Assembly (NCBI GenBank): GCA_035326705.1
Contig: DAOLES010000001.1
Location: 116,762-180,761 of the forward strand
Direction: 5' to 3'
DNA from: Oligoflexia bacterium
Lineage (GTDB): Bacteria > Bdellovibrionota_G > JALEGL01
DNA: 64,000 bases
In this document: piece by piece, positions 17,381 through 63,896 of the stretch
How the letters are laid out: each line of letters opens with the position of its first letter
Numbering within the stretch: the stretch's first letter is position 1
Made by a program: the position numbers and the translations under genes
The notes under the pieces: model-generated
Told to the model about the DNA's origin: nothing
The model's input: only the letters and a program-made list of their open reading frames with translations
Databases searched by the model: none

Positions 17381-18847
17381 ATGCACTTAGAAAAACTTTA
17401 CCGAGTTTTGGTTTTGGCCAATGTGCTTTTTTTTAGCTCTTATAGTCAAGCGCAAACTGTGGTTGACCTGTCTATAAATAATATTTTTCAACGTCTTGAG
17501 CGTGTATCGTTTGACTATCAATTGGCGGTGCTAGAAACTAAAATTTTAGAAAGCCAGCGTGAAAGCCTTTTAGGAGTATATGATCCAACCCTGAATACGC
17601 AATTGGGCTATCAATTGGATGCCAGTGATCCAGTTAATGCTGTTTTTGGTACTCGTAATGATACATTATCCTATACTGCGAATGTTCAAAAAAACTTTAA
17701 ATATGGTACTTCTGTAGAGTTTGGATTTTTAGGTTCTAGTCAATCTAGTAATAGTCCTTTTGTTGCCCTTGATCCAGCAATCGATAATCAATGGTATTTG
17801 AAATTAAGACAGTCACTGTGGAAAAACGGCTTAGGTGGAAATATTATTCGTGAAATAAAAGCGCTTGAGAATAGAACTGAAGGTTCAAAAATATTAAGCC
17901 AAAGAAGAAAAGAAATGCTTTTGGCCAGTATATTATTAAGTATTGTTCAATTAGAATACAGTAACAGTGAACAATTAATTTTAAGTCAAGCCTATCAAAG
18001 AGCTTTAGACTTGTACGATAACACAGAAAAAAGACGGCGTTTAGGAGTAGCTAATAAATCTGATGTTATGGCAAGTTCTGCTAATACTTTGACTAGAGAG
18101 CAAAATCTGCAACAGTCTGACAGTCAGTACAGTAATGCCTGTAGAGAACTTTTGTATTTACTTGCATACAATTTAGATCAATACCAATGTAAAAGAAATA
18201 ACTCTCTGGATGTCAAGATTTGGCAATATCTAGAACAGTCAAAACCGGATGCTCAACATGGAGAACTGATTAAAATTGAAAAAGATATTTTAGCCCAACA
18301 ATTAATTGTTGAAACATTTAAGAATCGTTTAAAGCCAGATTTAAACTTAATTTTAGAACTTGCCTCCAACGGAGTTAATGATGATTGGGCAGCATCCTTT
18401 AAAGAAAGCTTAAGTGTGAGTAACCCTAATTTTTTTGCAGGTATAGAACTCAGTGTCCCCTTAGGGAACAAAAAAAACAAAAATGATCTTAAACGTGAAA
18501 AAATCATCAATGATCAATTGAAATTACAACTACAACGTTTACAGTTAATGATAGAGAAAGACTATTTAAATGCGTATCAAAACTATAAGGGCTATAAAAA
18601 ACAATGGGAGCTTTCACTTAAGCAAGTTGATATTGAAGAAAAAAAATTAAAAGAAAAAGATAATGATTTTAAGATAGGTCGCGCAGAAATTGCAGATGTT
18701 ATTTTATATCAACAAGATGTTTTAAGTGCTCAATTGAATGTTAAACGAAATGAAACTCAGATGCATATTGCAATGATTAATAAAGCATTGGCTGAAGGTA
18801 GTTTACTTAATTTATTGAAGGAAGCTCAAAATAGGAACAAGCAATGA
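17381..18847 (+). CDS. TolC-family outer membrane efflux protein
   Basis: Signal peptide. Two-repeat coiled-coil/beta architecture typical of OMF proteins. Translationally coupled (ATGA) to the downstream RND gene. Confidence 0.75.
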   Translation: MHLEKLYRVLVLANVLFFSSYSQAQTVVDLSINNIFQRLERVSFDYQLAVLETKILESQRESLLGVYDPTLNTQLGYQLDASDPVNAVFGTRNDTLSYTANVQKNFKYGTSVEFGFLGSSQSSNSPFVALDPAIDNQWYLKLRQSLWKNGLGGNIIREIKALENRTEGSKILSQRRKEMLLASILLSIVQLEYSNSEQLILSQAYQRALDLYDNTEKRRRLGVANKSDVMASSANTLTREQNLQQSDSQYSNACRELLYLLAYNLDQYQCKRNNSLDVKIWQYLEQSKPDAQHGELIKIEKDILAQQLIVETFKNRLKPDLNLILELASNGVNDDWAASFKESLSVSNPNFFAGIELSVPLGNKKNKNDLKREKIINDQLKLQLQRLQLMIEKDYLNAYQNYKGYKKQWELSLKQVDIEEKKLKEKDNDFKIGRAEIADVILYQQDVLSAQLNVKRNETQMHIAMINKALAEGSLLNLLKEAQNRNKQ

Positions 18848-21800
18848 AGTGGGTAGAGTTCTCAGTTAAAAATAGTTTAGTGGTTAACTTGTTGGCTGTG
18901 TTTGTGACGGTAGCCGGGTTGCTTACTGCTTTATCTATGAATAGAGAAGCTTTTCCTTTATTTTCATTTGATATTGTTTCTATAAATACACGTTATCCAG
19001 GAGCTACACCTGAGGAAGTTGAAAAATTAATTACCCAACCTATAGAAGAAGAGCTCAGAAGCATAGCTGATTTAGATAAAGTTGAGTCTATTTCAGCTGA
19101 AGGATACAGTTTAATTTATGTAACCATTGATTCCGATGCTAAAAATAAAAGTAGAATAGTTACAGAAATTCAACAGGCTGTAGATAGGGTAGAAGGTTTG
19201 CCTGCAGATCTAGAGGATGATCCAATAGCTACAGAAATACGAACTCAAGATAGCCCTATTATAGAACTAGTTTTGTTTGGTGATATGAACCGAGTTGATT
19301 TGCAAGCTCAGGCAGAAGAAATTGAAAAGCAGTTATTAGATATCCCTTTGGTTGCGGATATTCAAAGGAAAGGCTGGAAAGAACAAGAGATTTGGGTAGA
19401 GCTAAACCCTAAAAAACTTAACCTTTATCAACTTTCAATTAATGAAGTCTCAGATGCAATTAAAGCAAGAAATATCAATGTTCCCGGAGGAATCTTTGAT
19501 GATGGTAACCAAGAACTTTTAGTTAGAACCAATGCTGAGTTTACAAAACCTGAAGAAATTGATGAAATTGTTGTAAGAGCCAATACCTCTGGAAGAGTGA
19601 TTCAAGTTAAAGATGTAGGCCAGGCACGCTATGCTTTTGAAGATGCGGACACTACTGTTCGAGTCAATGGTGAAAACTCAGTGAGCTTAGTGGTGGTTAA
19701 AAAAGCTGTTGGAGATACAATTAACTTGGTTGAACAAGTACAACGAGTTACAGAAAACTTTATAGAGAACTCGCATTCAAAAATTCAATACAGCTTTATC
19801 AATGATGTTTCTGTTTATGTTAAACGAAGGCTTAACATTTTATTGAGCAATGGTTGGATTGGGTTACTGCTGGTTATTATATCATTGTTTGTATTTTTAA
19901 GCCCACGTGTAGCTTTATGGACAGCTTTAGGCTTACCCATGGCTATGGGTATGGGTTTATGGATGATGGGGGTTTTTGACATTACCATTAACTTGATTTC
20001 TATGTTTGGGTTGATTCTGATTTTAGGGATGCTGGTTGATGATAGTATTGTTGTTGCTGAGAGTATTTATAGATTTTTGGAGCAAGGAAAAAGTCCAGTT
20101 GAAGCAGCTATTTTAGGGACAAAAGAAGTTGTTAAACCTGTTATTATGACTGTTTTAACAACTGTGGTATTTTTCTTGCCTTTGGCTTTTATGTCAGGGA
20201 TTTTTGGAAAATTTCTTAAACCTATACCCATTGTGGTTATTATTACTTTATTAGCAAGCTTGGTAGAGTGTTTTATTATTTTGCCTAGCCATTTAGCAGA
20301 TTTCGGTGCAAGTAAAAAACACAAAGCTGATCCTTCTGGAATTAAGACAAAACAATACTCAAAATGGTTTGAAGCATTTAAAGATTTTTATGGTCGATGC
20401 ATGCAATTAATTTTTAGAGCTTATTTTTTAGTTACAGTATTGGCAATAGTAATATTGGTGGGGGGGATTTATCATGGCATAAAGACTACACCAATTAATC
20501 TCTTTCCGGGAAAAGATATTGAAATCTTTTTTGTAAGGGCAGAAGGTAAAGTAGGTACTGCTTTAAAAGTAACTGAAGAAAAAATAAAACAAATAGAAAA
20601 TTTAATTAAAGATCTACCTAAAGATGAGCTTAAAGATTATGCAACACAGATTGGTTTGGTGCAACAAGATCCTAATGATCCAGCAACCTTGAGAGGTAGT
20701 CATGTTGCCCAAATTGCTGTTTATCTGACAGCAAAAGAAAAAAGAGAAAGAGAAACCAAACAAATAACTGATCAACTTAGGGAGAAAATAAAAAGTATTC
20801 AAGGTTTTGAGAGAGTTTGGATTGATGAGGTAAAGCCGGGCCCACCACAAGGGAAAGCAGTAAGTTTAAGAATAAGAGGGCCAAATTTTGAAACCTCTAG
20901 AGAAATCGTTGCTCAAATTAAAGAGGATTTAAAAAACACTCCTGGTGTTAGAGATATTAGGGATGATTTTGAGCCGGGTAAAAAAGAAGTTCAAGTACTT
21001 CTTAATGAAAAAAATATTGCTCGAGCGTCTTTATCTCCATTAATGGTTGCTAAAACCGTTAGATCGGCAGTGGATGGTGATTTAGCTGCTGTCATTAAAG
21101 AAGGTGAAGATGAGGTTAATGTTTTTGTAAAGCTGGATGAAAACTTAAACTCATCGTATAAAGTTTTAAACGATATGTATGTCAAGAATCCCTTTGGCTT
21201 TCAAGTACCACTTTCTAAGCTTGTGTCTTTTAATGAAGGGCAAAGTATTAGTCAAATCAAACATTACGACTTTAAACGGGTAGTAGGGGTGAGTGCAAAT
21301 ATAGACGAAGATGTCACCAGTTCAAAAGAGGTCAACGAGACAATTCGAAAAAAATACAGTAATTTGGGGCAAAAATATTTTGGCTACGATTTATTTTTTG
21401 GAGGAGAGGAAAAAGATACACAAGAATCTTTAGATAGTTTGATGCGTGCGGCAGTATTAGCCTTAATGATGGCATTTTTTATTTTAGCAGCGGCATTTAA
21501 TTCATTATCACAACCGTTATTGATTTTATTGGCTATTCCCTATGGTTTATTTGCAGCGATATACGCATTAAAATTTCATGATGAACCTTTAAGCTTTTTA
21601 GCGTTTTTGGGTTTAATTGGTTTATCTGGGGTGACCGTTAATGATTCAGTTATTTTGATTGATTATATCAACCAAACAAGAAAGACCTGTGAAGACAAAG
21701 TAGAAGCTGTTTTGATAGCTTGTAAAACCAGGCTTAGACCAGTTATCCTGACCAGTGTTACAACAGTTTTAGGTTTAGCACCCGTTGCATATGGTGTTGG

Positions 21801-21945
21801 TGGAAATGACCCCTTTTTAAAACCTATGGCATTAACCATGACTTGGGGCCTGGCTTTTGGCACTGTGTTAACCTTAGTTTTAATTCCCTGTGCTTATCTG
21901 AGCTTGGATAGTTTTATATCTATTTTTAAAAGAAATAGGCAATAA
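18844..21945 (+). CDS. RND efflux transporter, AcrB/HAE1 family inner-membrane component
   Basis: 1033 aa, 12-TM topology. N-terminus aligns with AcrB (…SxxYPGA…). Conserved GMLVDDSIVV region in TM4. Confidence 0.95.
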   Translation: MKWVEFSVKNSLVVNLLAVFVTVAGLLTALSMNREAFPLFSFDIVSINTRYPGATPEEVEKLITQPIEEELRSIADLDKVESISAEGYSLIYVTIDSDAKNKSRIVTEIQQAVDRVEGLPADLEDDPIATEIRTQDSPIIELVLFGDMNRVDLQAQAEEIEKQLLDIPLVADIQRKGWKEQEIWVELNPKKLNLYQLSINEVSDAIKARNINVPGGIFDDGNQELLVRTNAEFTKPEEIDEIVVRANTSGRVIQVKDVGQARYAFEDADTTVRVNGENSVSLVVVKKAVGDTINLVEQVQRVTENFIENSHSKIQYSFINDVSVYVKRRLNILLSNGWIGLLLVIISLFVFLSPRVALWTALGLPMAMGMGLWMMGVFDITINLISMFGLILILGMLVDDSIVVAESIYRFLEQGKSPVEAAILGTKEVVKPVIMTVLTTVVFFLPLAFMSGIFGKFLKPIPIVVIITLLASLVECFIILPSHLADFGASKKHKADPSGIKTKQYSKWFEAFKDFYGRCMQLIFRAYFLVTVLAIVILVGGIYHGIKTTPINLFPGKDIEIFFVRAEGKVGTALKVTEEKIKQIENLIKDLPKDELKDYATQIGLVQQDPNDPATLRGSHVAQIAVYLTAKEKRERETKQITDQLREKIKSIQGFERVWIDEVKPGPPQGKAVSLRIRGPNFETSREIVAQIKEDLKNTPGVRDIRDDFEPGKKEVQVLLNEKNIARASLSPLMVAKTVRSAVDGDLAAVIKEGEDEVNVFVKLDENLNSSYKVLNDMYVKNPFGFQVPLSKLVSFNEGQSISQIKHYDFKRVVGVSANIDEDVTSSKEVNETIRKKYSNLGQKYFGYDLFFGGEEKDTQESLDSLMRAAVLALMMAFFILAAAFNSLSQPLLILLAIPYGLFAAIYALKFHDEPLSFLAFLGLIGLSGVTVNDSVILIDYINQTRKTCEDKVEAVLIACKTRLRPVILTSVTTVLGLAPVAYGVGGNDPFLKPMALTMTWGLAFGTVLTLVLIPCAYLSLDSFISIFKRNRQ

Positions 21946-55176: not shown

Positions 55177-55899
55177 ATGAAAAAAATAAATACACTATCA
55201 TTCATTATATTATTGGGGGTTAGCCTTGTCTCTTGCGATCAAATTAAGGGTAAGGCTTCAAAAAATGTAAACCTTTCAACTGATAAAGCCAAAAGAAGTT
55301 ATGCAATTGGTTTACAGGTTGGAAGAACACTCAAATCACAAAAAGTTGATTTAGATGTGAACGTTATTGCAGCAGCAATTTCAGATGAACTTTCAGGTAA
55401 AGAAGCTAAGATGACTGAAGCGCAAATCAGAGAAACAATGATGGCCATGCGTGAAGATCAGCGTAAAAAAATTGAAGAAGAAAAAGTCATGAATGCCAAA
55501 GCTGGTGCAGAATACCTTGAAAAAAATAAAACTCAAGAGGGTGTAAAAACCACAGCTTCTGGACTGCAATATAAACATGTTACTGAAGGTAACGGCGCAA
55601 CTCCAAAAGAAACTGATAAAGTTAAAGTTCACTATAAGGGTACTTTAATTGATGGAACAGAGTTTGATAGTTCTTATAAAAGAAATCAACCAGCTGAGTT
55701 TAATGTAAACCGAGTCATTAAAGGTTGGACTGAAGGTTTACAACTCATGAAAGTTGGAGGTAAATCGATCTTTTATATCCCTGCTGAATTAGCATATGGA
55801 GCTGTACCAAGGCCACAGATTCCTGCAAACTCTGTTTTGGTTTTTGAAGTAGAGTTGTTGGATATTGTTGATGAACAAAAAAATCCGAAAACAAAATAA
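55177..55899 (+). CDS. FKBP-type peptidyl-prolyl cis-trans isomerase, Mip/FkpA-like lipoprotein
   Basis: Lipobox LVSC. N-terminal dimerisation helix plus C-terminal FKBP domain (…GLQYKHVTEGNG…YKGTLIDGTEFDSS…IKGWTEGLQLM…LAYG…) colinear with Legionella Mip. Confidence 0.85.
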   Translation: MKKINTLSFIILLGVSLVSCDQIKGKASKNVNLSTDKAKRSYAIGLQVGRTLKSQKVDLDVNVIAAAISDELSGKEAKMTEAQIRETMMAMREDQRKKIEEEKVMNAKAGAEYLEKNKTQEGVKTTASGLQYKHVTEGNGATPKETDKVKVHYKGTLIDGTEFDSSYKRNQPAEFNVNRVIKGWTEGLQLMKVGGKSIFYIPAELAYGAVPRPQIPANSVLVFEVELLDIVDEQKNPKTK

Positions 55900-58174
55900 G
55901 CGATTTCGTTTAAAAAAAAATAATCGAATAAAGAAAAGCAAGGTTCATACTTTTAAGTGGACCTTGCTTTTTATTTTTTTAGTTGGTGTATTAGGTGTTT
56001 TTATTCAGACCTACCTATCTCTTCGTCTGATTGTTAATAAATTTTCAAAACCACTACAATGGGAAATTAGTTCACAAGTCTATTCTGATGAAAGCGTAAT
56101 TTATTCTGGGGAGTATTTTAAAAAAGATTATATTACGGAATATCTTAAGCTTTTATCTTACAAAGAAGTAAAACAGCAAAAAGATATTGCACATGCACGT
56201 TTTTATGAAAATAAGACAACCAATTCTGTCCTTGTGTACTTTCATCAACCGAAGAAGAAAATAGTATTCAAATTCAATGATAAACAATTTTTAGATAGCA
56301 TTGTTGATGTCAGTCAGAGTTTAGAAAAAGAATTAAATCATATTGAGCTGCCTAGAGTATTATTAGGTGAGTTTTATGGTGATAAGAGAGAGAAACGAAC
56401 TATTTTAGAGTTTGGTGAGTTTCCAGAAACCTTAAAGCGATCTATTATAGCAATGGAGGACAGAAGTTTTTATAGTCATCATGGAGTAAGTATTAAAGGT
56501 GTATTGAGAGCTTTGATTACCAATATTACTAAAAAATCATATGCACAGGGTGGAAGTACTCTAACTCAACAGCTTATGAAAAACTTTTTTTTAAGTCATA
56601 AAAAGACTCTTTGGAGAAAATGGAAAGAATTGGTTTTAGCTTTAATCGTTGATAAAATGTACAGTAAAGAAAAAATTTTTCAAATGTACCTTAATGAAAT
56701 TTATTTAGGTCAAGTAGGTACGGTTTCTATTCATGGTTTTGAAGAAGCATCACAGCTTTATTTTCATGATAGTGTAAAAAATTTATCTATATCTCAACAA
56801 GCAATGTTAGTAGGACTAATAAGTTCTCCAGGGAGGTATTCACCATTTAATAATTTTGAACGTTCATTGAGTCGTAGAGATTTAGTTTTAAAAAAAATAT
56901 TTGATGAAAAAATTATAAACCAAAAACAGTACATTAATGCTAGAGATGAAAAAATATACTTAGCTAAAAAGAGAGAAGTTTTTGAGCAGAGTTTATCATT
57001 AAAAAATAGTGTTTTATATGAATTAAATGAACATTTTTCTGAATTAGATTTAAAAGAAAATGGTTATAAAGTATTCACATCAATTGATCCTATTTTTCAA
57101 AAAAGTCTTAGAATTCAAAGTCAAAAAATATATAAAGAGATATTAACCCAACAAAAATTCAATAGTGAAGATTTACAAATGGGTGCAATTAGCATTAATC
57201 CTACTTCAGGCGCAATAAAAGCAGTATTAACAGGGGGAGGAAATCAAAATCAATACAATCATGTATATCAAATGAGAAGGCCTATTGGGTCCTTAATTAA
57301 GCCTTTAATTTTAGCCTATATGGTAGAAAAATATAAAAATGATTCTGAAAAGTATATTTCTAATACTCGTTTACTTAATGATAAAAAGACAACAATCAAA
57401 TATGATGAAAAAGAGTGGCAACCTAAAAACTATGCCAATCAATATTTTGGAAAAGTTAGTTTAAGAACTGTAGTTGAAAAATCTTTGAACTCAGGTTTTT
57501 TAGATTTAATACAGCAGTATTCTTTTGAAGATATTTATGCAATGGCCAAACAATATGGCTTTACTGGATACCAAGAAGTTCCAGCTTTAGCATTAGGTGC
57601 ATTAGAGTCTAACCCATATCAAATGGCCGGACTATATAGTATGTTTGTAAACTCTGGGTCAGCATTAACACCGAGTTTAGTGCAAAAAGTTACAAATGAA
57701 GCGGAATCAATACAGTCAAGACAGTTAAAAAGTAAAAAGTTTATTTCAGAAGAGGTTGCTTACCAAATTTTAAGCTTAATGCAAGGTGTGTTAAAAGACG
57801 GTACAGGTAAGAGTTCAAAAGCATATAATTTAAAATACAGCTATGCTGGAAAAACTGGAACCAGTAATGACAATAGAGATGCTTGGTTTATAGGTTTATC
57901 AAAGGATTTGATTACAGTTGTATGGTTTGGATTAGAAGGAGATCACAAGAGTAGTTTGACTGGGGCAAATTCAGCATTGCAGATATGGCTCAATTATATT
58001 AAAAAAATAGAAACCTATGTAAGAAGTGAGTCGTTTAAGCCGGCAGAAAAAATAAAAATAAAAAAAATAGATAAAGAAAAAGCATGTAGATGGAGTTTAT
58101 TTAAAAGTAAACGTAATAATTTTGAAGAAGTTTTTTTATCAAATTATTCAATCAGGAGATGTAGCAATGAATAA
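55865..58174 (+). CDS. Class A penicillin-binding protein (GT51 transglycosylase + transpeptidase), PBP1A-like
   Basis: N-terminal TM. GT51 motifs (EDRSFYSHHGV, GGSTLTQQL). TP motifs SLIKP (SxxK), SLNS (SxN), KTGT. Confidence 0.85.
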   Translation: MLMNKKIRKQNKRFRLKKNNRIKKSKVHTFKWTLLFIFLVGVLGVFIQTYLSLRLIVNKFSKPLQWEISSQVYSDESVIYSGEYFKKDYITEYLKLLSYKEVKQQKDIAHARFYENKTTNSVLVYFHQPKKKIVFKFNDKQFLDSIVDVSQSLEKELNHIELPRVLLGEFYGDKREKRTILEFGEFPETLKRSIIAMEDRSFYSHHGVSIKGVLRALITNITKKSYAQGGSTLTQQLMKNFFLSHKKTLWRKWKELVLALIVDKMYSKEKIFQMYLNEIYLGQVGTVSIHGFEEASQLYFHDSVKNLSISQQAMLVGLISSPGRYSPFNNFERSLSRRDLVLKKIFDEKIINQKQYINARDEKIYLAKKREVFEQSLSLKNSVLYELNEHFSELDLKENGYKVFTSIDPIFQKSLRIQSQKIYKEILTQQKFNSEDLQMGAISINPTSGAIKAVLTGGGNQNQYNHVYQMRRPIGSLIKPLILAYMVEKYKNDSEKYISNTRLLNDKKTTIKYDEKEWQPKNYANQYFGKVSLRTVVEKSLNSGFLDLIQQYSFEDIYAMAKQYGFTGYQEVPALALGALESNPYQMAGLYSMFVNSGSALTPSLVQKVTNEAESIQSRQLKSKKFISEEVAYQILSLMQGVLKDGTGKSSKAYNLKYSYAGKTGTSNDNRDAWFIGLSKDLITVVWFGLEGDHKSSLTGANSALQIWLNYIKKIETYVRSESFKPAEKIKIKKIDKEKACRWSLFKSKRNNFEEVFLSNYSIRRCSNE

Positions 58175-58676
58175 AATACGCATAATTGTAATATCTGGGC
58201 TATTATTGTTTATAGGCTGCCGTCCAGCAAAACAAGCTTATCAAGCACAAGAACAGGTAGTTTTAGAGCAGATGTATCATAATGAAAGTGAAGCAAAAGC
58301 AAAAATAGCTGTGAAATATTTAATAGAAGCCGAAAAAAGCTTGAAAGTTGATCAATATAAAAAAGCAGAATTGGTTTTATTAAAAGCATTGGAGACTCAA
58401 GAGTATAGAGATTTAGTGAACTATTATTTAGCACAAACGTTTTATTATATGAAAAGATACGATGAAGCATTTTCTACTGTTGATAACATTGATACAGAAT
58501 TTAATCATTACCCAAGATATAGATATTTATTACAACGTTTAAAAGCCGATATCCACTTAGCAATGGGTAAAAATGAAGATGCCTTAAATGCCTACAAGAA
58601 GTGTTTAAATATGCACTCTGATGATGTTTATGTTAAAGAAAAGATAAAATTATTAAGTGTATCAAATAATAATTAA
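58167..58676 (+). CDS. TPR-repeat lipoprotein
   Basis: AGGAG RBS 8 nt upstream of ATG at 58167. Lipobox LLFIGC. TPR-like helices. Overlaps PBP gene stop by 8 nt. Confidence 0.55.
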   Translation: MNKIRIIVISGLLLFIGCRPAKQAYQAQEQVVLEQMYHNESEAKAKIAVKYLIEAEKSLKVDQYKKAELVLLKALETQEYRDLVNYYLAQTFYYMKRYDEAFSTVDNIDTEFNHYPRYRYLLQRLKADIHLAMGKNEDALNAYKKCLNMHSDDVYVKEKIKLLSVSNNN

Positions 58677-58719: not shown

Positions 58720-59310
58720 ATGAGTCAGTTGTCATTGCTTAGTGGATTAGATTCTAATCAGTATAAAATTTTGTATTTTGATTTAGAAACCAAGAAATCA
58801 GCTGAAGAAGTAGGCGGGTGGTCAAATATTAAAGATATGGGGATGGCATGTGGTGTTTTATATGATTCTGAAGACGACCTATACCATGTTTACTTAGAAG
58901 ACCAAGTTCATGAAATGATCAAACACATAAAATCTGCGGATTTAATTGTAGGTTTTAATCATATCTATTTTGATTATAAAGTTTTAACGGCATATGATAA
59001 TTTTAATTACAATAGATTAAATAACTTTGATTTATTATTGGATATTGAAATGCTATTAGGCAGAAGATTAAAACTAGATGCCTTAGCAAAAACTACCTTA
59101 AAAAAGCAAAAAACTGCTGATGGATTACAAAGTTTACAGTGGGTTAAAGAAGGAAAAATAGATCAGGTCATCGATTACTGCAAGGCTGATGTTGAAGTAA
59201 CAAAAGATTTATTTTTATTTGGAGTTGAAAATAATTTTATTTTATACCCAGATAGAGGTCAAAAAGCTCAGCTTAACGTGAATTGGAATATTGATAAGTT
59301 GGTTAAGTAA
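58720..59310 (+). CDS. DEDDy-type 3'-5' exonuclease (DnaQ-like/RNase D-like fold)
   Basis: Exo I LYFDLET. Exo II LIVGFNHIYFDYKVL. Exo III YCKADVEVTKDLF. Confidence 0.6.
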   Translation: MSQLSLLSGLDSNQYKILYFDLETKKSAEEVGGWSNIKDMGMACGVLYDSEDDLYHVYLEDQVHEMIKHIKSADLIVGFNHIYFDYKVLTAYDNFNYNRLNNFDLLLDIEMLLGRRLKLDALAKTTLKKQKTADGLQSLQWVKEGKIDQVIDYCKADVEVTKDLFLFGVENNFILYPDRGQKAQLNVNWNIDKLVK

Positions 59311-62300
59311 TGAAAATGAAACGTTCAGTCGACATTTTTTTATTTGTAACTTTTTTGCTGGCTTTATCAGTATTTGCAAAATCAAATTCTTATTTAAATT
59401 TTCAAGAACGTCGCCAGTTATTTAAAGATGAGTTGCAGTTCAATGACTCACATGAAGTTTTACGTTATGCAAGTAGTCATTTGCATCAACATGAATATTA
59501 CTACGGCAGTAGCGGGGATCTTTTTGAGCAATTTGTTCAGTTTTTATTTCCACTGACTGGAAGAGAAAATAGGATTATGTTTATGCCACTTTCTGCTTGG
59601 GGCCCTAAAAAACCTCAGTATAAAAAATTTGATTGGCAAAGATATGAGTCTCAACACTTTGTATTTTATTATGATAAAAATGCTTACTCTTCATTTAAAA
59701 AAGCGCATGCATTTTTAGAAGATGATTTTGCACGTAACAACGAAATTTTTTCAGTTAGAAATAAGTTTTTAAAAAAGATTCCCATTATAATTTATCAGTC
59801 AAGAAAAGATTTTGAACAAACAAATATTGTAAGTGGTCCAGTGCCAGAGGGCTTAGGAGGTGTAACCGAAATTTTTTCATGGAAAAGAGCCGTATTTCCC
59901 TTTGAAGGTGAAATGTCAACTTTTGAACATGTGACCAAACATGAAGGTACGCATATCTATCAAATAGCTAAGGGAGCAAAAAACTTACCATTATGGTTTA
60001 TTGAAGGTTCTGCTGAAACTAATTCAATATACTGGGATGCTGATGCGGAACAATTTATTAGAGATGCGTATTTAAATGATCTGTTTTTTGATATTGATGA
60101 TTTATGGCAAATTCGTGGCACTTGGTTGATGTATAAAATTGGCAACTATATTTGTAATTTTATTCGTGAAAAGTACGGTGAGAGAGCTTTGCAAAAAATT
60201 TATCAAAATTCAGTTTCCTTGAATTTTAATGAAAACATTAAATTATCTTTAGGAGTGTCTTTGCAAGAACTCAATAGAATGGTGCAAGCATCATTATCTA
60301 TGAAATATGGGTATTTATATAAAAAAAATAATCCATATGACAAAGCTCTAAAAGTACAAAAGAGATCCGTTGTTTTACATGCATATAAAAACTTTTTTAT
60401 CAGTGGTAAAGGAAATGGCTCTAGTAATGCTTTATACATTAACTATATTGATGAAATGAGTAAAGTACATAAGAAAAAAATAATTTCAGATAAAAAATTA
60501 AATAGTGAATCATTGAATTATTTTAGAAAAGGGGCATGGTTGAATGAATCTAGTTTAGTTTATTCAATAAAAAATGGGTCTCATGATGAAATAAGATTAC
60601 TTAATTATACATTTGATAAAAAAAAGAAACGTTTTAAGTTTGATAAAAAACCACATTTAATTCGTTTTCAGAAGATAAGATCGATTTTTTCACCTGTAAT
60701 AGTTGGTGATAACAAAGTAGTATTTATTGGTATCAAAAACGGTTTTAGCAATATTTATCAATATAATTATATTGAGAAAAAACTTGAACAAATAACAAAA
60801 GATTCTGCACATTATTCAAATTTAGATTACTCAGCTGCTAAAAACACAATAATTTTTTCTAAAGAATTGGAGCGTTCTCAAGATAGAATTTATTATAACA
60901 GAGATATTTTTGAATATGATTTAAAAACTCAGAAAATAATACCAATTACGCAAACTTCAGATATTAGAGAAAATAATCCTAGGTATTCAATATCTGGAAC
61001 TAATATTATATTTTCATCAGATGAAGATGAAACACATAATTTATATTTGTATAACACGTTAACTAGAGCCAAACAAAAATTGACAAATCATCCTTCAGGT
61101 ATAAAAACAGCCGTTTGGTCTCAAAATGAATCATTGTTGTTAAATGTGAATAATCGGTTTGTTTCCGATATTGTGCACATGCCACTTCCTAAACCCTTTG
61201 ATATGCTTAATAATGAAATTAATTTTGATTCTTCAAAATCAATATCAGTTTTTTCAGAAAATAACGCCTATATATATTCTCCAAAAAATTTAGATGAAAA
61301 AACTACAGAAATTGAAGTTGAATTCAACTCAAATAAAAAAATTACCACTGGTAACAATAATACTTTTCTTCAGCACAATGATCAGAAATTTAAAGTTCAA
61401 AAAATTGCTGCTTTTGAAAATGAATTGTTTATTCAGGCCACAAATATAAACGATGATAAAAAAAGAATTCAGTCACTTGAAGATAAAATATTATATTTTA
61501 GGGTTAACAAAAATACCCTTGAATCTATATATGATCCAGTTATTCAAAAAGATTCGTCTTCAAAATCAATTAATCAAAAAATAAGTAAGATATTAAAAGA
61601 TAAAGTCATTATTTCAGTTTGGGAGTTTAAGGATACAGCAGATGCTTTAGTTCTTGTTAATGAAAAACTCAGTACGCAGGATAAGTCACAAAATAATAGT
61701 AAAGCGATAACAAATTTATACTCATGTGATTTGGAAAAAAATAACTGTGAAGTGTTGCGAGGGTCAAGATTAGAAAATTTTAAAAAGGATATTTTTTGGG
61801 TAGCAAAATTAGAGGGGGGCTCTTATTTGTGGACTTTATCTGAAAATAAAAATGGTCCATATGAGATTTTTTTGTATGATCATAAACTAAAAAAAACCAT
61901 AAAAGTAGGTAATGAGGTTTTAAGATTTAAAGTTGCTGAAACTCAAAACTCATTTTCTATGTTGGTAGGATCTGACTTTATTGTTTACGATTTTTCAGAG
62001 GAAAAAGGATGGACTGCAAAACAGTATGAGCCAAATGGCAGTATCATAGGGTATGATTTTTTAAAAAAATCAAATGACTTTATGATTTTAACCAGCCATA
62101 AAAAACATTTAAATATTCATTTACTTAAAAAAGATAAAACAGTTTTAAAAAAAGTAAAACATTCTATCAATAACCTTGTTCTTGCAACAATTAATAAAAA
62201 GACTGGAGATTTTGTTGTTTATGCAAAGTCTCAAAATAACTCAGAGATGATCGATAAGCTTTATTATTATGATAAAAAGACTGAAGAATTTTATGATATA

Positions 62301-63896
62301 TCTATTAGAGGCAAACTCAAAACATTTGATCAAGTTGTTTTTATTGATGATTTCTTAGTCTTTACTGGAAAGAATTTTTCTTATGAAAAGTCTGAAACAT
62401 GGGTTTGGAAAAATAAGGAAAGAAGGCAGCTTAAAAATATTATTGAAGCTAAGAGTTTAAATGATAACCAATCTTGGGTAGTGAACTTAGAAAATGATTT
62501 GTACCTTCTTCAATTTGATAATGATAAGTATAAAAAGATAGTCAGTGATAGTTTTGGTTTTGATGTACATAGTAAAAAAGTTTTTTATGCATCTACAAAC
62601 AATGAAAAATATAATATTTATCAATATGATGTTGATTTAGATAAAAATAGTTTGTTGATAGCCTCTAAAAATCATGCGTTTAAGCCTAAGTTTTTTAAAA
62701 ATAAACTCTATTATCAATCTTATGATGGTAAAGTTATTAATGTAAGAGAGTACGTTTCAGATAAGAATCAAGATTCATTAGCGTTTTCATTGAAAAAACA
62801 TCACGTTGTGATGGATGCAAGTAATGAAAATCTAAAAAGAATGCGTTTTGATTTGTTACCTTATCAAGAATCTATATATTCTGGCCCAGAGTTAACTTCA
62901 CCAAAGTCGTTTCCTATTGAAAACTCCTCCAAACCAGCAAAAGATATTTATAAGCTGCAATCTTTGTTAGCAGCGGCAGCCTATGATGGGAATAACTTTA
63001 GGATCCTTTTAAATGGTTATGTGGATAATATATTTAGTGACAAGGGAGCATTTGTAAATCTTATTTTACTTGGTGAAAATAAATTTGCTGTATTTGGAGT
63101 TTCAAACTTACGAAATGCCACTTCTGCATCTGTTTTTTATAATGACAGAGAAAATATTCAAAATTATGGAATTAACTTTAGCAAACGGTTTAATCTTGAT
63201 CGTTATAGAGCATTTAATATTTTAACTGAATTAGAAAGGCAAGTATATGGTGAATCAACACCTGACACATTAAGTTATGTTGATAGTGACGTTGAAAATA
63301 AAAGCTTTAATGTTGTAAAGCTCTCTAGTACTTATGATCACGATGTAACACTATGGGATAGACATGGTCCTATAAGTGGAAGTAGAGTGTTTTTTAGATT
63401 AAGTAGTGGTTTAGATTTAACTGAACAAAGGCTTGCTTATTACAGTGGAAATGCGGATGTTAGATTTTACAACTCAATACTAAATAAATTTAGCTTGGCA
63501 CATAGGTTGAGCGCAGGAAGCAGTCAAGGTGCTTTACCAGAAGTATATTTAGCTGGGGGAAATATATCTTTTAGAGGTGTTAATTTTGATGATTTACAAG
63601 GTCAGAATTATGCAATTTTTAGCGAAGATGTAAGGTTGCCACTATTTGATTTTATTGGGGCAAAGTTTTTTGATCCTTTAGATAGTTTTGTTGGTTTTTT
63701 AACACGCTTTTTTGATGTTAGAACAGGAGCTTTTATTGATGTGGGAGATGTTTGGTACAATAATGAAGATTTTGAGCTTATGTATGCCAGTGGATTTTTT
63801 GCTAATGTGCCTAGTTTATTAGGGGTGAATTTGAGGTTTCATTACTCAGTTTGGGGTAAGCAAGGCTTTGGTTTTTGGATTGGGAGTAATTGGTAA
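59310..63896 (+). CDS. Giant secreted chimeric protein: N-terminal HExxH peptidase (Peptidase_MA_2-like) + PD40/TolB-like beta-propeller repeats + C-terminal Omp85 (Bac_surface_Ag) outer-membrane beta-barrel
   Basis: Signal peptide MKMKRSVDIFLFVTFLLALSVFA. HEGTH…WFIEGSAE (HExxH + EGxAE). Mid-region PD40-like repeats (…IIFSSDEDETHNLYLY…). C-terminal region with Omp85 loop-6-like YLAGGNISFRGV and aromatic terminus GFGFWIGSNW. TAATG overlap with the upstream exonuclease gene. Confidence 0.65.
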   Translation: MKMKRSVDIFLFVTFLLALSVFAKSNSYLNFQERRQLFKDELQFNDSHEVLRYASSHLHQHEYYYGSSGDLFEQFVQFLFPLTGRENRIMFMPLSAWGPKKPQYKKFDWQRYESQHFVFYYDKNAYSSFKKAHAFLEDDFARNNEIFSVRNKFLKKIPIIIYQSRKDFEQTNIVSGPVPEGLGGVTEIFSWKRAVFPFEGEMSTFEHVTKHEGTHIYQIAKGAKNLPLWFIEGSAETNSIYWDADAEQFIRDAYLNDLFFDIDDLWQIRGTWLMYKIGNYICNFIREKYGERALQKIYQNSVSLNFNENIKLSLGVSLQELNRMVQASLSMKYGYLYKKNNPYDKALKVQKRSVVLHAYKNFFISGKGNGSSNALYINYIDEMSKVHKKKIISDKKLNSESLNYFRKGAWLNESSLVYSIKNGSHDEIRLLNYTFDKKKKRFKFDKKPHLIRFQKIRSIFSPVIVGDNKVVFIGIKNGFSNIYQYNYIEKKLEQITKDSAHYSNLDYSAAKNTIIFSKELERSQDRIYYNRDIFEYDLKTQKIIPITQTSDIRENNPRYSISGTNIIFSSDEDETHNLYLYNTLTRAKQKLTNHPSGIKTAVWSQNESLLLNVNNRFVSDIVHMPLPKPFDMLNNEINFDSSKSISVFSENNAYIYSPKNLDEKTTEIEVEFNSNKKITTGNNNTFLQHNDQKFKVQKIAAFENELFIQATNINDDKKRIQSLEDKILYFRVNKNTLESIYDPVIQKDSSSKSINQKISKILKDKVIISVWEFKDTADALVLVNEKLSTQDKSQNNSKAITNLYSCDLEKNNCEVLRGSRLENFKKDIFWVAKLEGGSYLWTLSENKNGPYEIFLYDHKLKKTIKVGNEVLRFKVAETQNSFSMLVGSDFIVYDFSEEKGWTAKQYEPNGSIIGYDFLKKSNDFMILTSHKKHLNIHLLKKDKTVLKKVKHSINNLVLATINKKTGDFVVYAKSQNNSEMIDKLYYYDKKTEEFYDISIRGKLKTFDQVVFIDDFLVFTGKNFSYEKSETWVWKNKERRQLKNIIEAKSLNDNQSWVVNLENDLYLLQFDNDKYKKIVSDSFGFDVHSKKVFYASTNNEKYNIYQYDVDLDKNSLLIASKNHAFKPKFFKNKLYYQSYDGKVINVREYVSDKNQDSLAFSLKKHHVVMDASNENLKRMRFDLLPYQESIYSGPELTSPKSFPIENSSKPAKDIYKLQSLLAAAAYDGNNFRILLNGYVDNIFSDKGAFVNLILLGENKFAVFGVSNLRNATSASVFYNDRENIQNYGINFSKRFNLDRYRAFNILTELERQVYGESTPDTLSYVDSDVENKSFNVVKLSSTYDHDVTLWDRHGPISGSRVFFRLSSGLDLTEQRLAYYSGNADVRFYNSILNKFSLAHRLSAGSSQGALPEVYLAGGNISFRGVNFDDLQGQNYAIFSEDVRLPLFDFIGAKFFDPLDSFVGFLTRFFDVRTGAFIDVGDVWYNNEDFELMYASGFFANVPSLLGVNLRFHYSVWGKQGFGFWIGSNW

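Follow-up and report, generated by a model that had tools for sequence, protein, structure and literature searches.

The window analysed here, a stretch of 64,000 nucleotides from the metagenome-assembled genome (MAG) of an Oligoflexia bacterium (positions 116,762 to 180,761 of contig DAOLES010000001.1), carries near its end an uninterrupted open reading frame (ORF) of 1528 codons plus a stop codon (59310..63896, plus strand, ATG start). We are highly confident that its product combines a zinc peptidase of the gluzincin type, TolB-like beta-propeller blades and a C-terminal Omp85 barrel, and that it belongs to the WD40-like subfamily of Omp85 proteins. With less assurance, we regard it as probable that this protein is a metallopeptidase anchored in the outer membrane and facing the periplasm, a statement which takes in both its topology and its function. 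A preliminary description made from the sequence had already read the ORF as a signal peptide, an HExxH...E gluzincin, a PD40/TolB-like propeller and an Omp85 barrel, and profiles, conservation, AlphaFold2 (AF2) models and Foldseek searches agree on this domain reading.

The analysis was built on 28 full-length orthologues collected from NCBI, ENA, JGI and Logan assemblies (1468-1542 residues, 30-81% identity, 95-100% query coverage), all of which align with the ORF product collinearly from end to end. Conservation is highest in the peptidase domain and in the barrel, where column identity reaches up to 0.8. The peptidase domain (residues ~105-349, 59622..60356, plus strand) is built from a small beta-sheet, the helix of the active site and a helical subdomain at its C-terminal end, and it shows the thermolysin-like catalytic fold. 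Its catalytic motif, H211-E212-G-T-H215 together with E232-G233-S-A-E236 (59940..60017, plus strand), corresponds to the HEGTH (residues 211-215) and IEGSAE (residues 231-236) pointed out previously, E232 lying 17 residues past H215. In the AF2 model of residues 1-420, for which the predicted local distance difference test (pLDDT) is 74 and reaches 80-97 in most of the core, HExxH lies on helix 202-221 while E232 and E236 lie on the following helix 228-239. E232 is accordingly modelled as the probable third zinc ligand, comparable to the glutamate of the M1 'NEGFA' helix, and the domain as a whole is a clan MA(E) gluzincin with an M1-like 'xEGxA' glutamate helix. Its nearest structural relatives include the M9 collagenases, the M30 lugdulysin (both secreted) and the tricorn-interacting factor F3 (M1). 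Whether the HExxH motif is conserved in orthologues had been singled out as decisive: H211, E212, H215, E232, G233 and E236 are invariant in all 28 orthologues and still so in a 34-sequence set that includes distant relatives, and among 43 further relatives of about 20% identity the HExxH and E232-G233 columns stay invariant, with at least 90% conservation in the E236 column. Since they are invariant in orthologues, neither the HExxH/EGxAE motif nor the FRG and terminal tryptophan motifs of the barrel can be ascribed to chance, and such strict conservation of the active site across the subfamily argues for a real enzyme. About 25 residues before HExxH, we also observed a near-invariant EGLGG(L/V)TE (GGVTE at residues 183-187, 59856-59870), whose placement is reminiscent of GxMEN, the exopeptidase motif in M1 aminopeptidases, and, by analogy, would suggest an aminopeptidase-like anchoring of the substrate; the loop of residues 180-191 near the active site is modelled by AF2 with a pLDDT below 50.

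At the other end of the protein, residues ~1215-1528 (62952..63893, plus strand) form a 16-stranded beta-barrel of the Omp85/BamA type according to AF2, Foldseek and BLASTP. The AF2 model of residues 1100-1528, built from a 31-sequence alignment (pLDDT 82), shows 16 long strands from residue ~1215 to the C-terminus, in line with the barrel predicted in the preliminary description from its loop-6 motif and aromatic terminal strand. That motif, ...AGGNISFRGV..., contains F1421-R1422-G1423 (63570..63578, plus strand), the equivalent of the Omp85 'VRGF/Y', and is placed by the model in the loop joining strands 11 and 12, where BamA has its loop 6; the protein ends on the aromatic strand GFWIGSNW. 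F1421, R1422, G1423 and W1528 are invariant in the 28 orthologues, and at least 90% of the 43 distant relatives retain the loop-6 R-G. When the barrel model was searched against the PDB with Foldseek, the top 50 matches were all BamA (best E 3.9e-11, probability 1.00), with template modelling (TM) scores of 0.51-0.65 normalised to barrel-only chains. The barrel is preceded by a linker (residues ~1191-1214, 62880..62951, plus strand) of low confidence or disorder (pLDDT below 50 at model residues 92-108). No POTRA domain (PF07244) was matched, at the thresholds used, in the 28 orthologues and the 43 relatives, and no POTRA-like beta-alpha-alpha-beta-beta unit is seen in the AF2 model, in which propeller strands lead through the disordered linker into the barrel.

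Between the two terminal domains, the middle of the protein is filled with propeller-like repeats, as had been proposed. The first propeller (residues ~350-655, 60357..61274, plus strand) has TolB/PD40-like blades, recognised by profile matches and by strands from residue 354 onwards in the AF2 model. The family profile matches TolB among PDB sequences at E 6e-14, together with the propellers of S9 peptidases and DPP-IV, and PD40 is found in 23 of the 28 orthologues. In the ORF product itself, the NCBIfam model TIGR02800 (TolB) matches residues 530-616 (E 1.3e-9), covering only model positions 258-343, that is to say propeller blades and not the N-terminal part of TolB. Orthology with TolB was rejected, as this match reaches 37.5 bits against a cut-off of 343.15 and involves few blades. 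A second PD40-like repeat region (residues ~656-1190, 61275..62879, plus strand) was detected by hhalign repeats and weak profile matches: hhalign relates it to propeller 1 with probabilities of 96.8, 93.6 and 81.8%, and positions 834-954 of the family profile weakly match the tricorn protease propeller (2.7e-4) and the LST8 WD40 (4e-3); precomputed matches to Tricorn_N and Tricorn_2nd are faint or weak. In AF2, residues 1100-1185 show short antiparallel strands with a regular spacing, which we read as modelled propeller blades. This region is the least conserved part of the protein (column identity 0.31-0.49) and is probably, from its repeats, a second propeller. The AF2 models cover residues 1-420 and 1100-1528, and both the number of blades and the choice between one and two propellers are taken from the hhalign repeats.

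The remaining part of the protein is its N-terminus. Residues 1-23 (MKMKRSVDIFLFVTFLLALSVFA, followed by KS; 59310..59378, plus strand) read by eye as a Sec-type signal peptide. They are followed by a segment of residues 24-104 (59379..59621, plus strand) which AF2 folds into helices of low confidence, and in which a strongly conserved motif, with the consensus GGDLFxQFVRFLFPISGREKRTMFMPLPYWGxKKP, stands ahead of the peptidase fold; it might serve as a pro-segment or a plug, or bind a partner.

The direct search with hidden Markov models recommended in the preliminary description gave no significant match. In the Pfam scan of the ORF product there was no match to PF01103 (Omp85) at E up to 1 and no significant match to PF13485 (Peptidase_MA_2) or PF07676 (PD40), and even among the 28 orthologues PF13485 matches only two (at 4.5e-4) and PF01103 a single one (at 2.2e-3). 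When compared with PDB sequences, the family profile found propeller proteins only and matched neither BamA nor a peptidase: sequence profiles are too weak for both terminal domains. Taken at face value, the empty scan would wrongly have spoken against the domain reading, and family profiles, relatives and structure models were therefore used, through which all three domains were recovered.

The relatives are indeed informative. An exhaustive phmmer search with residues 60-660 against 1.84 billion cluster representatives returned 187 clusters at E <=1e-30 and 936 at E <=1e-10, mostly of 900-1100 residues, with a group of 1270-1320 residues and long forms of 1450-1640 residues. Among 43 sampled relatives, Pfam matches were found for PD40 in 41, Peptidase_MA_2 in 26 (E <=1e-3), Omp85 in 20, M9 in seven and the ShlB/FhaC model in three. 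BLASTP aligns relatives of ~970-1100 residues with residues ~95-620 of the ORF product (peptidase and propeller 1) and, in those that also match C-terminally, with residues ~1270-1528 (barrel), leaving out residues ~620-1270; the second repeat region accounts for the ~450-600 extra residues with respect to relatives of ~950-1100 residues. Three short relatives (P0031, P0033 and P0035) match Peptidase_MA_2, PD40 and Omp85 together. PD40 and Omp85 exceed the gathering score in all three (PF01103 at 45.8, 57.3 and 28.8 bits, respectively, against a cut-off of 24), and Peptidase_MA_2 does so in P0031 only (33.0 bits against 32.4). By BLASTP, the C-termini of P0031 and P0033, which match PF01103, can be aligned with residues 1268-1528 at 5e-8 and 7e-7. 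From this tripartite design shared by the short relatives, it follows that the window protein is a long and divergent branch of a large tripartite family. In databases, the relatives are named 'BamA/TamA family outer membrane protein', 'PD40 domain-containing protein' or 'WD40 repeat protein', and some are wrongly labelled 'Tol-Pal system protein TolB'. They come from MAGs of WOR-3, Cloacimonadota, Gemmatimonadota, Bacteroidota and Edwardsbacteria. Directly after the gene of P0031, a 973-residue short form, lies a gene for a 386-residue PQQ_2 beta-propeller protein similar to BamB in size and family (L003, 10930-12090), which could hint at a link with BAM-type machinery.

A family of this kind has already been catalogued. 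Heinz and Lithgow (2014, Front Microbiol 5:370; PMC4104836) split the Omp85/TpsB superfamily into ten subfamilies, one of which, named 'WD40-like', joins an Omp85 barrel to a TolB-like propeller and was likened to a fusion of BamA and BamB. Their Table S2 gives PF01103 + PF07676 architectures and their Table S3 has columns for the 'best WD40 hit' and the 'best aminopeptidase hit'; H1XQ58 (Caldithrix), D0MEQ5 (Rhodothermus), A9FGN9 (Sorangium) and B0VIY2 (Cloacimonas) are listed members, and members such as these have scores of 99-100 for BamA/TamA, for TolB and for 1z5h (F3), 4kxd, 3qnf or 4ar1 (ColH). The peptidase is not discussed in their main text; because Table S3 lists barrel, TolB and aminopeptidase matches, the tripartite architecture was nonetheless on record there, and the subfamily is named again by Hanson et al. 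(2024, PMC11116518), so that the earlier claim of an undescribed class does not hold. The WD40-like, Metallo and noNterm subfamilies are marked by a lack of POTRA domains (PMC4104836), and the metalloprotease, WD40-like and patatin-like Omp85 subfamilies are still regarded as poorly characterised (PMC11116518); our literature search found no paper on the function of any WD40-like member. The window protein has the TolB-like PD40/WD40 propeller ahead of an Omp85 barrel and the M1/M9-like N-terminal 'aminopeptidase' domain that mark this subfamily, to which we assign it by architecture and by homology to unnamed relatives of ~950-1100 residues, some from the same phyla (such as Cloacimonadota).

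Within its own lineage, the long form is found in 14 loci, all from Bdellovibrionota/Oligoflexia MAGs, when genome contigs are scanned with the family alignment; the patterns used are highly specific and returned the long clade alone, and the scan is uninformative on the taxonomy of the short forms. As far as seen, the long-form clade is thus confined to Bdellovibrionota-type MAGs. Three long-form relatives (P0030, P0211 and P0213) are labelled by NCBI as 'Candidatus Harrisonbacteria', which belongs to the candidate phyla radiation (CPR), and 'Nanoarchaeota archaeon' MAGs. All three share the peptidase-propeller N-terminal region, and P0030 aligns over the C-terminal barrel too. An outer membrane is not expected in CPR and Nanoarchaeota lineages, and these labels probably reflect the mis-binning of low-GC, small-genome Bdellovibrionota-like bacteria with CPR/DPANN bins. 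In Bdellovibrionota bacterium ABC1.34, a relative of 26% identity (L017, 7021-8943) matches residues 40-1033 only, the contig ending there, and could represent a second lineage of paralogues or else a truncated record.

The neighbourhood of the gene is made of envelope and housekeeping genes. A gene for an FkpA-like periplasmic peptidyl-prolyl isomerase of the FKBP type (FKBP_N + FKBP_C; 55177-55899, plus strand), whose N-terminus is lipoprotein-like (…VSLVSC), immediately precedes the gene for a class A penicillin-binding protein (PBP), PBP1A (Transgly + Transpeptidase; 55865-58174), an adjacency also found in locus L015. Next comes a small TPR protein (58122-58676, plus strand; Pfam TPR_21, 1.7e-7), whose listed start, a TTG, overlaps with the last part of the PBP gene; from an internal methionine one reads MNKIRIIVISGLLLFIGC, a lipoprotein-like signal with a lipobox cysteine, and a small TPR lipoprotein beside a class A PBP recalls, by analogy, the PBP regulators of the Lpo/CpoB type. 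A DEDD-type exonuclease-like protein (58720-59310) is encoded directly upstream of the ORF, whose start codon shares bases with the stop of that gene (TAATG), and downstream begins an RlmE/FtsJ gene; FtsJ also follows in L001 and L002. The order PBP1A-(TPR)-exonuclease-ORF is kept in seven loci (the window, L001, L004, L007, L008, L010 and L015), between which the proteins are 32-38% identical, and the exonuclease gene adjoins in 12 of the 14 loci. Maintenance of this order among housekeeping and envelope genes at such a degree of divergence favours a core function in the envelope over a role as an accessory virulence factor: the gene behaves as a vertically inherited core gene and not as an island-borne one. 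Behind the conserved order may stand a functional coupling of the outer membrane to peptidoglycan synthesis, or nothing more than operon inertia. Farther away in the window, a TolC-like outer-membrane efflux protein (OEP) and the adjoining AcrB-family transporter of the resistance-nodulation-division type (17381-21945, plus strand) point to a diderm envelope.

How might such a protein work? The barrel would be inserted into the outer membrane by BAM, the machinery for beta-barrel assembly, through its C-terminal beta-signal. To our knowledge, strand 1 has its N-terminus on the periplasmic side in all Omp85 proteins of determined topology (BamA, TamA, FhaC and, since 2024, PlpD). As loop 6 follows strand 11 here just as it does in BamA, strand 1 should likewise start from the periplasm, so that the peptidase-propeller module of ~1190 residues would hang in the periplasm beneath the outer membrane, as shown for the POTRA domains and for the enzyme domain of PlpD, the one analogue put to the test. 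Propellers serve in substrate binding or size filtering in TolB, in the tricorn protease, in DPP-IV and in other S9 peptidases; it is tempting to propose that here too they would bind or size-filter substrates and supply the zinc site with peptides or unfolded polypeptides. The protein would then act as an envelope peptidase tethered to the outer membrane, likely to process envelope proteins or peptides or to control their quality, in the manner of BepA. Several points weigh against this proposal. The ORF product gives no significant Pfam match for Omp85, Peptidase_MA_2 or PD40, the domain calls being drawn from relatives and from AF2 models of 31-34 sequences with a predicted TM score of 0.58-0.62, and the second propeller is deduced from hhalign repeats and weak profile matches. 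Topology, activity and substrates are inferred for every member of the subfamily. Omp85 barrels are normally insertases or translocases of other proteins, and the barrel may therefore do more than anchor. Finally, the synteny extends to a cytoplasmic exonuclease and an rRNA methyltransferase, and may for this reason mirror operon inertia instead of function.

Other explanations deserve consideration. The unusual length of the protein and its poorly conserved, very AT-rich middle region (GC 0.26-0.28) could raise the suspicion of a frameshift or an assembly chimera fusing a peptidase/propeller gene with a separate Omp85 gene, a worry voiced in the preliminary description. This was ruled out by full-length collinear orthologues from at least 14 independent assemblies, and we give the artefact practically no credit: beyond the 28 collinear orthologues, the gene is present in 14 species-representative Bdellovibrionota/Oligoflexia genomes, nine or ten of which hold essentially its whole length while in the others a contig ends within the gene, and one further assembly, of an Oligoflexia MAG, encodes a protein 100% identical over the full length (hypothetical protein PKC21_00840, P0001, annotated by NCBI from the second methionine with 1526 residues). 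That the gluzincin domain is a dead pseudo-peptidase, kept as a binding module alone, is compatible with an activity so far predicted from sequence and with a poorly modelled loop of residues 180-191; the catalytic residues (the HExxH histidines, the general-base glutamate, E232/G233 and, slightly less strictly, E236) are conserved down to ~20% identity, a dead enzyme is therefore not expected, and we deem it very unlikely.

Two further explanations concern what the barrel does. If the protein exported itself in the manner of type Vd secretion or of an autotransporter, the barrel would move the peptidase-propeller passenger to the surface, where it would be displayed or released as an extracellular protease. 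A catalytic domain N-terminal to an Omp85 barrel is formally PlpD-like, secreted enzymes stand among the nearest structural relatives of the peptidase, and the Bdellovibrionota include predators with secreted hydrolases. Yet the protein has neither a POTRA nor a patatin domain, the family is common in non-predatory phyla (WOR-3, Cloacimonadota, Gemmatimonadota, Bacteroidota), and the gene lies among housekeeping genes; the host-associated lifestyle suggested for its bearer is not shown either, its source being an Oligoflexia MAG without known habitat. Even in PlpD, the patatin domain stays periplasmic and the export of a folded domain of 31 kDa was judged energetically unfavourable (Hanson et al. 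2024, PMC11116518), whereas here ~1190 residues with propellers would have to cross. Self-export thus appears improbable to us. A better case, albeit still an unlikely one, can be made for the barrel as the working part, a BamA/TamA-like insertase or a TpsB-like translocase on which the propellers would dock as BamB or TolB do and for which the peptidase would process or clear clients. Protein assembly or translocation is the task of all Omp85 proteins characterised (PMC11116518), the barrel is as well conserved as the peptidase, with the loop-6 RG and many barrel residues invariant, a role akin to a BamA-BamB fusion was proposed by Heinz and Lithgow (PMC4104836), and both the PQQ_2 propeller protein of BamB-like size next to one short relative and the three of 43 relatives that match the ShlB/FhaC model fit with it. 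On the other hand, the POTRA domains by which BamA, TamA and TpsB bind substrates or partners are missing, no TpsA-like or TamB-like partner gene adjoins the ORF in the window, in L001 or in L002, and PlpD illustrates an Omp85 barrel used as a scaffold for a periplasmic enzyme. This explanation and the outer-membrane-anchored peptidase that we favour are not mutually exclusive.

The favoured peptidase also lends itself to a bolder speculation, suggested by architecture and synteny, to which we attach no more weight than to self-export: the barrel seam might engage stalled or damaged outer-membrane or periplasmic proteins and feed them into a tricorn-like double-propeller chamber capped by the gluzincin, the whole perhaps being coupled to peptidoglycan synthesis by way of the class A PBP and the TPR lipoprotein conserved next to it, in place of Lpo/CpoB-Tol coordination. 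If true, this would be an outer-membrane proteolytic machine, an Omp85 protein devoted to degradation and not to assembly or secretion. More soberly, no new class of secretion system is revealed here, and the value of the ORF lies in offering a well-delimited, testable example of a predicted metallopeptidase anchored in the outer membrane, within one of several Omp85 subfamilies without known function. To what was on record, our analysis adds a peptidase active site that is strictly conserved across the subfamily, a long-form clade with a second propeller-like region, a divergence of the window protein beyond detection by Pfam, and the finding that in this lineage the gene is a core one whose surroundings, of envelope and housekeeping genes, are conserved.

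Compared with known systems, the closest match is the WD40-like Omp85 subfamily itself, with which the window protein shares the BamA/TamA-type barrel without POTRA, the TolB-like PD40 propeller and the M1/M9-like N-terminal domain, the Pfam architecture of its short relatives being exactly that of the subfamily; it differs by its length (~1528 residues against ~900-1100, with ~450-600 extra PD40-like residues before the barrel) and by a divergence too great for the Pfam models of all three domains. PlpD and FplA, the patatin-like Omp85 proteins formerly assigned to 'type Vd secretion', also carry an enzyme domain N-terminal to a 16-stranded Omp85 barrel, and the outcome is likely the same, a hydrolase facing the periplasm and tethered to the outer membrane; PlpD, for its part, is a homodimeric patatin phospholipase with one POTRA, whereas the window protein has a gluzincin and propellers and no POTRA. 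Membership of type Vd was rejected, as there is no patatin match in the protein or its 28 orthologues, no POTRA and a gluzincin as N-terminal domain, and with the PlpD 'passenger' being itself periplasmic, the type Vd-like passenger of the preliminary description fails even as an analogy. BamA and TamA resemble the window protein in barrel fold (Foldseek E 3.9e-11), in the loop-6 RG and in the terminal aromatic residue; they lack its enzymatic and propeller N-terminal region of ~1190 residues and have the POTRA domains that it is without, and structural alignments give 13-18% identity. It is not the BamA orthologue of the organism, PF01103 not even being detected. With TolB, which the middle region matches best at the level of sequence, the PD40 blades are shared, but the match is limited to a few blades and the window protein is not a soluble periplasmic protein. 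The tricorn protease with its factor F3 and the S9/DPP-IV peptidases likewise associate tandem propellers with a peptidase, with weak profile matches to the tricorn propeller and structural similarity of F3 (M1) to the peptidase domain; tricorn and S9 enzymes are, however, cytosolic or soluble serine peptidases, while the window protein is a membrane-anchored zinc gluzincin placed N-terminal to its propellers. Finally, BepA of E. coli is a periplasmic M48 zinc metalloprotease with a TPR domain, associated with BAM and involved in the quality control of envelope proteins. Its likeness is one of functional analogy only, a zinc metalloprotease at an Omp85 barrel: BepA is a separate soluble protein of family M48, the window protein carries an M1/M9-like gluzincin, and a sequence relationship between the two is not expected.

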